Shown in pieces: positions 55,880 through 64,000 of a DNA stretch of 64,000 bases. The DNA comes from Gemmatimonadaceae bacterium (GTDB lineage: Bacteria > Gemmatimonadota > Gemmatimonadetes > Gemmatimonadales > Gemmatimonadaceae). Position numbers and translations under genes: made by a program. The stretch lies in NCBI GenBank assembly GCA_016742275.1, contig JACVCD010000017.1:32952-96951 (forward strand), read 5' to 3'. Position 1 is the stretch's first letter; each line of letters opens with the position of its first letter. The notes below the pieces were generated by a model. The model ran no database searches. It saw only the letters and a program-made list of their open reading frames with translations, and was not told where the DNA came from.

Positions 55880-56992
55880 ATGACTGCCACTGAATCCGGC
55901 GCCCTCAAGCGTACGCCGCTCCACGATATCCACGTCGCACTCGGCGCCAAGATCGTCCCCTTCGCTGGCTATGAAATGCCGGTGCAGTATCCGACTGGCA
56001 TCACGGCCGAACACAAGGCGGTGCGTGAGGCGTGCGGCATGTTCGATGTCTCGCACATGGGCGAAGTCATCGTGCGCGGGCCCGATGCCATTCGGTTCGT
56101 TTCGTCGGTCACCAGCAACGATGTGTCGGCGCTGGCGGTGGGGCAGGTGCAGTACAGCACGCTGCTGCGGGCCGATGGCACACTGGTCGACGACCTGCTC
56201 GTGTATCGCTTTGCCGATCACCTGCTGCTCGTGATCAACGCCAGCAATCGCGACAAGGACATTGCGCACCTCAACGCGCACCTCGCGGGCTTCGATTGCA
56301 CGTTGACCGATATCTCCGATAACACCGCGCTGTTGGCAGTGCAGGGGCCCAAGGCACCGGCAATCGTAGCCGGCCTCGCCGATGTGCCGCTCGATGGCAT
56401 CAAGTACTACTGGTTTACCGAAGGCAATGTCGCGGGTGTGCCATGCATCATCTCGCGCACTGGCTACACCGGTGAGCTGGGCTTTGAGCTCTACTTCGAC
56501 GCCAAGGAAGCGCCCAAGGTGTGGGAGGCCATCATGGCCACTGGCGAAGTGACGCCGGCCGGACTCGGCTGTCGCGACTCACTGCGACTCGAAGCGGGCA
56601 TGAGTCTCTATGGCAACGAGCTGGACGATCGCACCACGCCGATCGAAGCGGGTCTCAACTGGATCGTCAAGCTGAGCAAGTCTGAGCCGTTCCTCGGCAA
56701 GGACGTCCTGCTGCGTCAGCACAACGAAGGCACCGATCGCAAGCTCGTGGGCTTCACATTCGATGAGCGTGCCATTCCGCGTCACGGCTATCCCGTGGTG
56801 TACGGTGGTGTGGTCGTCGGCGACGTGTGCAGTGGCACCATGAGCCCCACACTCGGCATCCCCATCGGGACGTGCTTCCTGCCCAGTGCGGCAGCGGTGG
56901 AAGGCACTACGTTCGAAGTGGATATCCGCGGCAAGAAGATTCCGGCGCGCGTGGTCAAGCTGCCCTTCTACAAGCGCCCGGGCAAAGCGTGA
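55880..56992 (+). CDS. gcvT: Glycine cleavage system aminomethyltransferase T
   Basis: FAGYEMPVQY, FDVSHMG, SRTGYTGELGFE, RDSLRLEAG. Confidence 0.98.
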   Translation: MTATESGALKRTPLHDIHVALGAKIVPFAGYEMPVQYPTGITAEHKAVREACGMFDVSHMGEVIVRGPDAIRFVSSVTSNDVSALAVGQVQYSTLLRADGTLVDDLLVYRFADHLLLVINASNRDKDIAHLNAHLAGFDCTLTDISDNTALLAVQGPKAPAIVAGLADVPLDGIKYYWFTEGNVAGVPCIISRTGYTGELGFELYFDAKEAPKVWEAIMATGEVTPAGLGCRDSLRLEAGMSLYGNELDDRTTPIEAGLNWIVKLSKSEPFLGKDVLLRQHNEGTDRKLVGFTFDERAIPRHGYPVVYGGVVVGDVCSGTMSPTLGIPIGTCFLPSAAAVEGTTFEVDIRGKKIPARVVKLPFYKRPGKA

Positions 56993-61371: not shown

Positions 61372-64000
61372 GCCTCCCCAAGGGCTAAGATAGCGCGACC
61401 AAGGAATGCGGCCGGAGAACTCTTCTCCCGCCGCATTTTTGCTATGTACCTATCGAGTAGTTGAGACGCGGCCTTCGAATCTCCAATGCGCAGCAGGGAG
61501 AAGATGAGCGCCGATGCGAACAAATCGGCGGCAGCAAACGATGCTGTTCTATCGAATCGACTTGTTGCGACCTCTAGCATCTCCTCAGAGGGCCGCCATT
61601 TCGGGTCCAATAGATTGGTTGAGAGCTCAAGAGCCATTACGTATGCCACGGACCGAGAATGCGGAATTCTGGGCAACGAGCGTTTGCAATGGTCCAAGTG
61701 CATTCTGGCGACCTTTGCGTCGCTCACACTGATTGCGGAGAGGCACAGATGACTGTGAATGAAGCTGTTCGCCGTTTCGTCGTGATTCTCTGACGCCAGG
61801 TCACGGAGAGTATTGGTCCATGCTTCTGCATTCGCCTGGTCACCCAGCTCAAGATAGACTTGGCCAAGTTGCCAGACCGGGTACTCAGCAAGGCGAGGAA
61901 GATCAATTTCGAAGGCGAGCCTCTGCGCTAGCGTGAGCGATCTGAGTGCTTCCTCGGGGTGGCCCGTCATTCGAAAGACATAGCCAGCACGACCACAGTC
62001 CACAATGCGGGACGTCGTCGAAGACGCTCGCAATCCCCTCAAGTACATCGACTCCGCAAGTTTGTATGCGACGTCAACCGATCCGAATACGGTATGATAG
62101 AGCACGGCAACACGTTGTAGTCGCTGGTCTGCTAGGTAATCAGACTCGCTTGTCCCAAGCCCTTCGTAGCAGTCTCTAGCGAGAACCGGGTCGCAAGTAT
62201 TTGATGCGATTACCAAACCGATATCAGCGGCACGGATTCGCAATTCCATCGATGCCGTGGTTGCCTTTGCAAGAGCTCCAGCGAACCCCCCAAGCTCGGA
62301 TGGATCCGCAATGGGATCCGAGCGAAACGCTGATTCGACGAAAGAGAGGCGTTCGTCGAGTTCCGTCTCTGATAGATTCTGCGCTGTACTTGGAAGCGAA
62401 ACACTCGACGAGAGCGAGCTAAGCGCCTGCGCAAAGTTTCCGCTCTCTGATTCGAGTCTGCCAAGAATTCGAGGTATCTTCTTAGAAAGACTCGAAGAGG
62501 AGCTCCGCTCCGCAATACTCCTCACTCCCCGAAGGATTAGCTCAGGCTTACCAACGTTGAGGAGATCATGCTCGTTTCGTGACAGGAAGGCTTCAAGCGC
62601 AGCATGCTTCTTCCCATGATAGAGTTGCGAGAACGCCTCAAGAAGAAGCTCCGGATCCAACGATTCCTGATACTCTTGCTCCACAAGTTCGGCAACAGCG
62701 GAGCGCAATGTCGCTTGGACTAGACTGGTCATTCGACTCACCGCTACTTGGCGAATGAGGTCATGCGATACCACCATGGATGCGTCTGAAACTGCTAGGC
62801 AACCTGACTCTTCAAGCTGTTCGAGACAAAAGAGCATCTCGTGCGTCGGCAGGTTGAGGACGCGCTGGATTCGGTCCAATGAAGCAAACCGTCCGAGTAT
62901 TGTAATGGTCTGCAGTGCCCTTACTGACGATGCCGCCAATCGATCAAGGCGTTGATCGAGCAGTACAGTCAGTGACGGGGGAACTCCGTCCGCATCGCCT
63001 GTGACTGTCCAATGTTCAACCAGGGCACGTAACATCAATGGTGTGCCTTCGCTACTTGAAACCAACCACCCCTCAACCTCTGCGGGAAGCGGAGCGGCCA
63101 AGTCAATTCCGATCGCGCGTGCAAGTTTTACGCAACCTTCATTGTCCAATCCGCTCAATCGACGGGCAATCAGATTCAGAGGGATCTGTTCCGGCCTGGG
63201 ATTCCGGATAGACGCATAGCGCGAAGTGATGATTGCAAAAACCCGCAGTGACGGAGTTCTGTGGAGCACGTCGAAAATTGCGTCCCATGAGGACTCATCA
63301 ATCCAATGCGTGTCTTCGACTACGAAGTAGATGGGTTGCTCATCTGATACCGCCGAAAACAGATCGACTATTGCGCGCCGTAAGGAGTGCGCGCGAACAC
63401 GCTGAATACGATCGGAGGCATCGTCTCTAATCGGATCACTGTAGGAGCTGGTGTTCGCAGGCGATTGCTGAGTATCCGGATTCTCAACGCCCACCTCCTC
63501 CCCCACCAACCGCTTCAACACCGCCAGACTCTCCGGCGAACACCCCAGCGCACCAGGACTCGCCATCAATTCCGGCAACGCCTCCAGCACAGCACCCAGT
63601 GGCCGGTGCTGCTCGCTCTCGCGGCACTCGATGGTGATCTCACGATACCCTTCGATCTGTGCGACTTTGCCGAGCTCCGTGCAAAGACGTGTCTTGCCGA
63701 TACCGGCTGGACCATGCAGCAGAATCGCGCTGCCATCATGCCAGCGCGCGCGACGCATCTGCATCGTCAGTTCGGCCATCTCCTTCTCGCGTCCGACGAA
63801 ATGCCGCTCCGTCGCCGCCAACGACGGACGCCGACGCGCGGATGGCTCCGTGAAACGCTTTCGCAATTGCGTCGCCGGCAGACGAATGTCTCCGGCATCC
63901 GGCCCCAGTTCCTCGAGATACCGATCGATGATCGCCACCGCCTCCGACTTGGCACCATTCATCATGGTGCACTCGGCGATCGTCAATGTGGCGTCTTCAT
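61368..64000 (-). CDS. BTAD/SARP-type regulator with STAND-like ATPase and helical (TPR-like) C-terminus; 5' end beyond the window
   Basis: Frame is open to the window edge (..EDATLTIAEC..EAVAIIDRY, BTAD-like); HFVGRE, Walker A GPAGIGKT, Walker B VVEDTHW, SEGTPL. Confidence 0.8.
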   Translation of the reverse strand, partial: EDATLTIAECTMMNGAKSEAVAIIDRYLEELGPDAGDIRLPATQLRKRFTEPSARRRPSLAATERHFVGREKEMAELTMQMRRARWHDGSAILLHGPAGIGKTRLCTELGKVAQIEGYREITIECRESEQHRPLGAVLEALPELMASPGALGCSPESLAVLKRLVGEEVGVENPDTQQSPANTSSYSDPIRDDASDRIQRVRAHSLRRAIVDLFSAVSDEQPIYFVVEDTHWIDESSWDAIFDVLHRTPSLRVFAIITSRYASIRNPRPEQIPLNLIARRLSGLDNEGCVKLARAIGIDLAAPLPAEVEGWLVSSSEGTPLMLRALVEHWTVTGDADGVPPSLTVLLDQRLDRLAASSVRALQTITILGRFASLDRIQRVLNLPTHEMLFCLEQLEESGCLAVSDASMVVSHDLIRQVAVSRMTSLVQATLRSAVAELVEQEYQESLDPELLLEAFSQLYHGKKHAALEAFLSRNEHDLLNVGKPELILRGVRSIAERSSSSSLSKKIPRILGRLESESGNFAQALSSLSSSVSLPSTAQNLSETELDERLSFVESAFRSDPIADPSELGGFAGALAKATTASMELRIRAADIGLVIASNTCDPVLARDCYEGLGTSESDYLADQRLQRVAVLYHTVFGSVDVAYKLAESMYLRGLRASSTTSRIVDCGRAGYVFRMTGHPEEALRSLTLAQRLAFEIDLPRLAEYPVWQLGQVYLELGDQANAEAWTNTLRDLASENHDETANSFIHSHLCLSAISVSDAKVARMHLDHCKRSLPRIPHSRSVAYVMALELSTNLLDPKWRPSEEMLEVATSRFDRTASFAAADLFASALIFSLLRIGDSKAASQLLDRYIAKMRREKSSPAAFLGRAILALGEA

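Follow-up and report, generated by a model that had tools for sequence, protein, structure and literature searches.

Toward the right-hand end of a 64,000-nucleotide (nt) stretch of DNA from a 4.57-Mb Gemmatimonas-type genome (C28:32952-96951, hereafter the window) lie a gene for a two-domain protein of 307 amino acids (aa), here termed unk307, an intercistronic leader, a short open reading frame (ORF) and the gene for a predicted membrane phosphodiesterase of cyclic dimeric GMP (c-di-GMP) of the HD-GYP type. These four parts form a conserved unit and are adjacent to one another across the Gemmatimonadota; literature searches returned nothing on this combination. With a confidence slightly above even, we favor the interpretation that the phylum-wide unit controls the c-di-GMP phosphodiesterase through a leader-ORF translational switch, in which a long-range RNA helix (P1) would mask the ribosome-binding site of HD-GYP until the small ORF has been read to its end. 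The four parts are located in the window as follows.

58827-59750, forward strand: unk307, a 307-aa two-domain protein (AlphaFold 2 models, Foldseek).
59751-59941, forward strand: the leader, a 191-nt gap between unk307 and the small ORF.
59942-60013, forward strand: the small ORF, 23 codons, unannotated, MEFMAQLVNAMMSFVLADLKTWG.
60046-61371, forward strand: the MASE9/HD-GYP gene, for a predicted membrane c-di-GMP phosphodiesterase (Pfam).

The locus represents a conserved and testable control layer composed of an RNA fold outside Rfam, an unannotated family of micropeptides ending in Trp, and an uncharacterized protein bearing a domain of an amino-acid-binding type. Across this little-studied phylum, which has cultivable members (Gemmatimonas), the three remain tied to a single HD-GYP gene. 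Should the switch be real, it would constitute a new class of leader-ORF/RNA regulator in second-messenger control and offer a first handle on what the MASE9 domain senses.

Conservation of the unit across the Gemmatimonadota

A first comparison covered 36 loci from nine families of the phylum, a further comparison added 80 loci from the Gemmatimonadaceae, and an outside-order comparison drew on 20 loci from other orders and classes of the Gemmatimonadota. Within the genus, 15 genomes carry gcvT, the gene of a sigma-54-dependent activator, unk307, the small ORF, HD-GYP, the gene of a STAND regulator, MoxR and atpB in identical order, and this order is loosely retained in five genomes from two other families of the order. 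The housekeeping flanks are equally conserved within the order, and synteny at that level therefore says little by itself. Among the further Gemmatimonadaceae loci, unk307 leads directly to HD-GYP in 55 of 56 and is preceded by the activator in 72 of 74, while gcvT is present in 64 of 69 and a convergent STAND gene in 36 of 43. Beyond the order, unk307 is followed by HD-GYP in 15 of the 20 loci, the activator and gcvT are adjacent in none (0/20), and the upstream neighbor of unk307 differs, being a phosphodiesterase, MgsA, a GGDEF protein or an unknown; the convergent STAND gene occurs in at least nine loci from other orders of the class. Because the succession of unk307 and HD-GYP outlasts the other neighbors outside the order, the evolutionary core of the region consists of unk307, the leader, the small ORF and HD-GYP.

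A first-pass annotation of the window had described a contiguous five-part signaling module, in which a conserved core produces a peptide and a variable cassette reads it. The listed parts (activator, LeuA-like protein, leader, 23-aa peptide, HD-GYP and STAND protein) are all present at or near the places assigned to them. The conservation of the neighborhood that was to support the module is uneven, with the four-part unit occurring phylum-wide, the STAND gene within the class, and the activator and gcvT within the order. The idea of a linked module is upheld for unk307, leader, small ORF and HD-GYP, plausible for the class-wide STAND gene, and weak for the order-restricted activator. The proposed division into a peptide-making core and a variable reading cassette is not supported, as HD-GYP sits in the most conserved unit (15/20) and the activator lies next to it only within the order. 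The activator and the STAND protein are lineage-restricted neighbors, and their wiring to the four-part unit is unproven.

The leader RNA and the long-range helix P1

In all nine families the leader runs 5' to 3' through a C-rich box, three repeats, a hairpin, a GACTYC element, the Shine-Dalgarno (SD) sequence with the small ORF, and, shortly past the stop, a G-rich box. The corresponding features of the window, together with a hairpin that directly follows the unk307 stop, are listed here.

59787-59805, forward strand: hairpin TTCGTC-N7-GACGAA, directly after the unk307 stop (alignment).
59817-59830, forward strand: 5' arm of P1, C-rich box TCCCCGTCAACCGA, pairing with 60022-60035, with a G.U pair among the base pairs.
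59834-59842 (R1), 59844-59851 (R2) and 59866-59875 (R3), forward strand: repeats GAGCGG(A/G)GC (alignment).
59889-59916, forward strand: hairpin P2 (inverted repeat), with a fourth GAGCGGA copy in its loop and 3' stem (59901-59907).
59916-59935, forward strand: conserved GACTGACC, then the strong SD GGGAGGTG (alignments).
60022-60035, forward strand: 3' arm of P1, G-rich box TTGGTTGGCGGGGA (covariation, minimum-free-energy (MFE) fold).

The C-rich and G-rich boxes are complementary in each lineage though their sequences differ (TCCCCGTCAACCGA/TTGGTTGGCGGGGA here, GGCTGACACTCGAA/TTCGAGTGTCAGCC in family f12 and CCCCCCGGTCCACC/GGTGGTCCGGGGGG in family f7), with several G.U pairs, and the resulting helix P1 occupies the same relative place in ~32 of the 36 loci. 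Cognate arms reach a mean score of 31.6 versus 21.1 for non-cognate arms (permutation z = 12.2, 0/5000), and P1 is present in the MFE fold of the window sequence (z = -2.5). As judged from the covariation, P1 encloses the leader and the small ORF and covers the ribosome-binding region of HD-GYP. No SD-like element other than the 3' arm precedes HD-GYP, whose ATG lies 11 nt farther downstream; in most loci the G-run begins 4-22 nt after the small-ORF stop and lies 9-19 nt before the next ATG.

Hairpin P2 shows compensatory changes within the genus. Across families, 78.7% of its cells are paired versus 52% in shuffles (slid controls give 31-55%), with 32 versus 12 double-change cells (0/500). 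The repeats, with the phylum form (G)AGCG(G/A)AGC and a fourth AGCGR copy held in the hairpin loop, appear in the window as four GAGCGG(A/G) copies at 59834, 59844, 59866 and 59901 that are conserved phylum-wide in the alignments; the first-pass description of a repeat-rich leader is borne out in this respect. R1-R3 are nearly invariant across the 36 loci, and at the nucleotide level the pre-ORF gap is conserved better than the small ORF itself. A generic repeat finder reported no repeats in the leader, and they emerged through cross-genome alignment. Where the window has GACTGACC, other families have GACTYC, which is complementary to GGAG. The GACTGACC/CUYCC element may act as an anti-SD of the small ORF, a pairing in which both sides are invariant. 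RNAalifold also suggested a possible pairing between repeats R1/R2 and the first codons of the small ORF, with both sides invariant or uncompensated.

As RNAalifold applied to the 36-sequence alignment gave no pairs, the hairpin being out of register between families, the leader was represented by a sequence-only covariance model (model R1) in which the repeats form the core. Model R1 recovers a single copy per genome, with E 2e-17 for that of the window's own genome. In 11 genomes outside model building every significant match lies directly downstream of an unk307 homologue, and the same position is matched in 74 of the 80 Gemmatimonadaceae loci. A search of Rfam 15 gave no match at E <= 1 in 56000-64000, and neither a tRNA nor a tmRNA was found.

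Several other identities for the leader were considered. A multi-copy element was rejected, the leader and the peptide both being single-copy in the genome, and CsrA-type GGA sites were rejected because many lineages have GAA for GGA in the repeats. SARP-type DNA direct repeats serving the STAND regulator were considered for the 10/22-nt spacing and the likeness to TCGAGCG heptamers; they were set aside because the spacing varies by lineage, because an RNA helix containing G.U pairs encloses the repeats, and because the repeats persist where the STAND gene is absent.

The hairpin at 59787-59805 has a stem that is conserved in the genus, a variable loop and no U-run, and may mark a site of processing or form an additional element of the RNA. 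Elsewhere in the genome, outside the window, there are about a dozen short arrays of 11-13-nt units GCGGAAGCGA(N2-5), for example at C7:28650-28725, C7:49511-49609, C20:56483-56546, C21:115897-116001, C29:205825-205892 and C29:308525-308578. The leader model does not match these arrays, although their units have the AGCGA core of the leader repeats; a GGAA tetraloop with a GC closing pair could form in each unit.

The small ORF and its peptides

The small ORF of the window (23 codons, MEFMAQLVNAMMSFVLADLKTWG, behind GGGAGGTG) occurs once in the genome. Between unk307 and HD-GYP, an ORF of 14-30 codons with a strong upstream SD of the AAGGAGGTG type is present in 36 of 36 loci, and the small ORF is also present in 59 of the 59 further family loci whose contig extends far enough. 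Within the genus, diversity at the three codon positions is 0.30/0.17/0.41 and the ratio of nonsynonymous to synonymous polymorphism (pN/pS) is 0.48, a substitution pattern indicating that the small ORF evolves as coding sequence. The 23-aa peptide gene listed in the first-pass annotation is real and linked to HD-GYP.

The loci encode 85 distinct peptides of 14-30 aa (median 23 aa), in which the last Trp is the final residue in 21 and the penultimate one in 56 (77/85). Trp accounts for 7.5% of peptide residues versus <1% in the neighboring proteins, hydrophobic residues for 63% (60% in the membrane part of MASE9), Arg and Lys together for 3.6%, and Pro for 0.1%. The other two reading frames of the same DNA are without this bias. 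A small or acidic residue often stands four positions before the Trp (G/D/E-x-x-x-W). None of nine peptides looked up in a 15-billion-protein collection was present. This constrained, hydrophobic and Trp-ending composition argues for a sequence-dependent role, and the product is probably a functional micropeptide and not a mere by-product of translation. It may act in the exit tunnel at termination, as a micropeptide on MASE9 or as a sensor of Trp supply, and several of these roles are mutually compatible. In one locus (L062) the small ORF, MLAWAMALFTGKILWTGKILW, contains a tandem duplication of the C-terminal TGKILW motif.

The MASE9/HD-GYP enzyme

The enzyme encoded downstream matches HD_5 (PF13487) at 9e-36 and has the complete set of H..HD..H..HHE..GYP..D motifs (readable as LLHDVGK, HHHENWDGTGYP and FADTIDAMTTDRPYR), as predicted for an active phosphodiesterase. 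Residues 61-195 match MASE9 (PF20972) with an E-value of 8e-6 and 26.3 bits versus a cutoff of 24.3. To our knowledge, c-di-GMP enzymes with membrane-embedded sensors such as MASE9 are common and none of them has a known input. MASE9 has been proposed to bind a ligand within the membrane (Galperin and Chou, bioRxiv 10.1101/2021.11.05.467447). The MASE9-HD-GYP enzymes TM1467 of T. maritima and HdgA of S. venezuelae share the domain architecture and the complete HD-GYP motif set with the enzyme analyzed here, whereas neither an upstream micropeptide gene nor a structured leader is described in that paper (bioRxiv 10.1101/2021.11.05.467447).

The two-domain protein unk307

The unk307 protein has no match in Pfam (even at E 5), in NCBIfam or among PDB sequences. 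An AlphaFold model based on 32 homologues predicts two folded domains (pLDDT ~88) and a disordered linker rich in Pro, Ala and Thr (residues 89-175). The C-domain (residues 180-305) adopts a (beta-beta-beta-alpha)x2 fold, for which Foldseek returned 1sr9, 3fig and 3f6g (E 1e-5 to 1e-3, probability 1.0, TM score 0.6 on the target); these are the leucine- or isoleucine-binding regulatory domains of M. tuberculosis LeuA and of the Leptospira citramalate synthase. The first-pass label of a LeuA-regulatory-like protein is correct at the level of the fold, and unk307 is outside the LeuA_dimer sequence profile and has no catalytic domain, such as the TIM barrel to which members of that family are fused. 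The N-domain (residues ~16-85), modeled alone (pLDDT 85), has a generic alpha-beta-beta-alpha-beta fold nearest in Foldseek to the ring-building motifs of EscJ/PrgK and the C-terminal domain of CzcD (E ~1e-3). An RNA-binding fold for the N-domain was considered and is not supported by these matches.

Of 301 sampled Gemmatimonadota genomes, 212 contain the unk307 family, whose members number in the thousands and are without exception annotated as 'hypothetical'. Adjacency suggests a role for unk307 in the unit. Its invariable adjacency and its domain of an amino-acid-binding type make unk307 the obvious candidate for a leader-binding protein. The arrangement resembles HutP, TRAP and PyrR, in which an intercistronic leader with several copies of a short repeat stands behind the gene of a probably oligomeric protein that binds a small molecule; in contrast, unk307 shares no fold with these proteins and is no more than a putative RNA-binding protein. 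Shorter paralogues (~150-250 aa) with the LeuA-regulatory-like C-domain alone are found elsewhere in most genomes of the order (for example, G049:C5:17306-17785 and G057:C11:116973-117395).

A proposed leader-ORF switch for HD-GYP

In the proposed switch, P1 would mask the HD-GYP ribosome-binding site in the folded state, and a ribosome reading the small ORF to its end would melt P1 and thereby allow HD-GYP to be translated (coupling or attenuation). Control over the frequency of small-ORF translation would lie in the leader's 5' half, with its four AGCGRA repeats, its hairpin and its CUYCC element, and this 5' domain might itself be read by a small ligand, as a riboswitch-like aptamer, or be bound by a protein, for which unk307 is the candidate. 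For the peptide, possible sites of action are the ribosome tunnel, at termination, and, as a micropeptide, the MASE9 domain. A conserved short ORF with a strong SD upstream of HD-GYP, predicted to be translated, fits such a switch. P1 is predicted to be the RNA that masks the downstream ribosome-binding site; the ribosome on the small ORF may not reach it where the arm starts >15 nt past the stop.

The layout corresponds to that of ermC/cat, tnaC, secM-secA and mifM-yidC2, in which a short ORF with its own SD lies just upstream of the regulated gene, a helix masks the downstream ribosome-binding site and the ORF ends beside that helix. With 14-30 aa the peptides would fit entirely within the exit tunnel, like those of TnaC and the Erm leaders. 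Unlike leaders of the ermC/cat type, P1 is not a local hairpin; it is a long-range helix with arms 200 nt apart that encloses the whole leader and the ORF, and a conserved repeat-bearing 5' domain precedes the ORF. The peptide also differs, with a terminal Trp and a hydrophobic body in place of a known arrest motif, as does the regulated gene, which here encodes a c-di-GMP phosphodiesterase.

Several observations weigh against the switch. We infer that the 5' arm of P1 is transcribed from covariation and G.U pairs alone, and a scan for sigma-70 promoters and terminators recognized none. A terminating ribosome does not reach as far as the 3' arm of several loci, in which the arm begins 17-22 nt past the stop codon, and melting may therefore be indirect. 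The G-run is at least 11 nt from the ATG, which is rather long for an SD element, and a distance of up to ~70 nt separates the arm from the start of HD-GYP in families f11 and f12. Being invariant, the repeats give no covariation signal for a pairing or binding role. Lastly, the unk307 N-domain resembles ring-building or CzcD-type domains and not known RNA-binding folds.

Alternative interpretations

The most probable alternative, to which we give about one chance in five, is that the small ORF mainly makes a micropeptide subunit or intramembrane ligand of MASE9, comparable to KdpF, MgrB and AcrZ, with the RNA merely ensuring co-expression and stoichiometry. A C-terminal Trp is typical of membrane-interface anchoring, and the peptides resemble the membrane part of MASE9 in hydrophobicity (63% versus 60%), carry few charges and almost no Pro, and are encoded 30-50 nt before the putative partner in every locus. 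The proposal of a ligand bound by MASE9 inside the membrane (bioRxiv 10.1101/2021.11.05.467447) also fits. Against this, many members have only 14-17 residues and are too short to span a bilayer, several have three or four acidic residues in the 'hydrophobic' stretch, a pN/pS of 0.48 is relaxed for a binding partner, and the invariant repeats, the hairpin and the SD-masking helix are left unexplained. In KdpF-KdpABC, MgrB-PhoQ and AcrZ-AcrB, too, annotation overlooked a hydrophobic peptide (<=50 aa) whose gene directly adjoins that of a polytopic membrane protein, but many of the present peptides are too short for a transmembrane helix and their gene is wrapped in conserved RNA structure. A role as a micropeptide on MASE9 is compatible with the leader-ORF switch and not exclusive of it.

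A sensor of Trp supply of the trpL type, in which scarce charged tRNA-Trp would cause a pause at the Trp codon, one or two codons ahead of the stop, hold P1 open and yield more HD-GYP, seems improbable. It would account for the Trp enrichment relative to the neighboring proteins and for the final or penultimate Trp (77/85) next to the masking helix, some members have three or four Trp in 16 residues, and the adjacent unk307 carries an amino-acid-binding type of domain. However, many lineages, this window included, have a single Trp codon, and compositional constraint extends over the remainder of the peptide, although a sensor of codons alone would not require it. A pause at the last sense codon would bring the ribosome no more than ~5-6 nt beyond the stop, whereas many 3' arms start farther away, and no link to a Trp-metabolism gene was seen in the neighborhood.

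More speculatively still, and in our view at long odds, the AGCGRA domain could be a new ligand-sensing RNA, either a platform read by unk307 or a riboswitch that recognizes c-di-GMP or a similar nucleotide, possibly a symmetric one. It would gate a Trp-tailed micropeptide that is at once the intramembrane ligand of MASE9 and a C-terminal-peptide ligand of the tetratricopeptide repeat (TPR) arm of the STAND protein. Were this the case, one RNA would set both c-di-GMP breakdown and a transcriptional programme by means of an intracellular peptide. That the TPR arm may bind the C-terminus of the peptide is an attractive possibility.

The circuit advanced by the first-pass annotation, in which an exported quorum-like peptide driven by the activator is read by MASE9/HD-GYP and by the STAND/TPR protein, is the least probable of the interpretations and very unlikely. 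In its size (~23 aa), its hydrophobic body and an acidic residue five positions ahead of the Trp, the peptide bears a loose likeness to pheromones of the SHP/XIP type, and a TPR-bearing regulator is convergent in 36 of 43 family loci and in other orders of the class. SHP-Rgg, ComS/XIP-ComR and ComQXPA similarly combine a short hydrophobic peptide, with a Trp-containing functional C-terminal part, and a nearby TPR-containing cytoplasmic regulator. These systems differ from the present locus, whose host is a Gram-negative-type member of the Gemmatimonadota, as the peptides here have neither a signal peptide nor a basic N-terminus, and no receptor with the helix-turn-helix (HTH) and TPR arrangement of Rgg/ComR is found. 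An exporter, maturation protease, Opp-type oligopeptide importer or prenyltransferase is adjacent neither here nor in ~135 related loci, and the dedicated export, processing or modification genes and cognate receptor that accompany the peptide gene in RRNPP and ComQXPA systems are likewise missing there. The first-pass annotation had itself remarked on the missing protease and exporter and on the lack of a sigma-54 box before the peptide, and the latter was reproduced: no match to a sigma-54 promoter beyond chance was found before the peptide or before unk307. Further, the activator is not linked to the unit outside the order, and families f11 and f12 retain the peptide and HD-GYP while lacking the STAND gene. 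P1 couples the peptide gene to the enzyme in cis, which argues against signaling in trans as the main link. The pairing of peptide and HD-GYP as a cis-coupled unit alters the reading of similar 'peptide plus HD-GYP' loci.

The activator, the STAND regulator and other neighbors

The genes flanking the four-part unit in the window are as follows.

55880-56992, forward strand: gcvT.
56989-58665, forward strand: sigma-54-dependent activator, a bacterial enhancer-binding protein (bEBP) (Pfam, NCBIfam).
61368-64000, reverse strand, continuing to ~64718 beyond the window: STAND NTPase regulator (AAA_16 and TPR).

The activator has the features of an NtrC-family bEBP, namely an AAA+ sigma-54 interaction domain (Sigma54_activat, PF00158, 9e-71; AAA_lid_14) with a GAFTGA motif readable in the translation and a C-terminal Fis-type HTH (HTH_8, PF02954, 2e-13), and rpoN was found elsewhere in the genome. 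Its 140-aa N-terminus has no Response_reg match in Pfam and aligns weakly, end to end, with the receiver of KdpE (E 0.35), with Thr at the position of the acceptor Asp and the KP motif kept. A phosphorylatable receiver with an acceptor Asp is therefore lacking, and from this alignment the N-terminus is plausibly a pseudo-receiver. The activator start overlaps the gcvT stop by 4 nt (ATGA, 56989-56992), which suggests co-transcription of a glycine-cleavage gene with a transcription activator. The abutting layout of gcvT and activator is retained in most genomes of the genus.

Inspection of the sequence beyond 64000 showed that the STAND gene extends to window-equivalent 64718, beyond which lie MoxR and the atp operon. 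The protein matches AAA_16 (4e-20), nSTAND6 and TPR families, that is, a P-loop NTPase followed by a TPR sensor. The earlier identification as a BTAD-STAND regulator is upheld for the STAND portion; the full-length protein has no BTAD match in Pfam, and in its N-terminal part (near 64718) a winged helix is suggested only by a below-cutoff match to Trans_reg_C (E 0.02), with TPR_19 matching where BTAD would be. At 22-50% identity, the STAND gene evolves faster than any other gene of the set. It faces HD-GYP in convergent orientation with a 4-nt overlap of the stop codons (61368-61371), so the 3' ends of both transcripts necessarily overlap.

Ranked by decreasing sequence identity, the genes are MoxR and gcvT, then the activator, unk307, HD-GYP and lastly STAND, and this gradient is probably why many contigs of metagenome-assembled genomes (MAGs) break 240-300 bp after unk307. 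In at least eight MAGs (L005, L007, L009, L010, L016, L019, L023 and L027) a contig terminates 234-306 bp beyond the unk307 stop codon, where the small ORF meets HD-GYP (equivalent to ~59990-60050 of the window). These ends fit a highly conserved leader followed by a strain-variable HD-GYP gene. The HD-GYP gene has a G+C content of 0.54 here and 0.50-0.58 in every relative, versus 0.60-0.69 in the flanks. No tRNA, tmRNA or known RNA was found as a cause of the contig breaks or of the G+C step. Recent horizontal acquisition of a low-G+C cassette was rejected, since the same dip is shared by all relatives and is therefore a property of the gene and not the mark of a recent transfer.

In families f11 and f12, a gene for a B12-binding radical-SAM protein takes the place of the missing STAND gene directly 3' of HD-GYP (L067:6315-7664, reverse strand; L069:12139-13482, forward strand), and in L069 it abuts the HD-GYP stop. 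In family f6, a GGDEF diguanylate cyclase fused to Fe-S/hydrogenase-like domains is encoded directly upstream of unk307 (L055:10653-12608, reverse strand), and the cluster of this family thus pairs a maker of c-di-GMP with a breaker.

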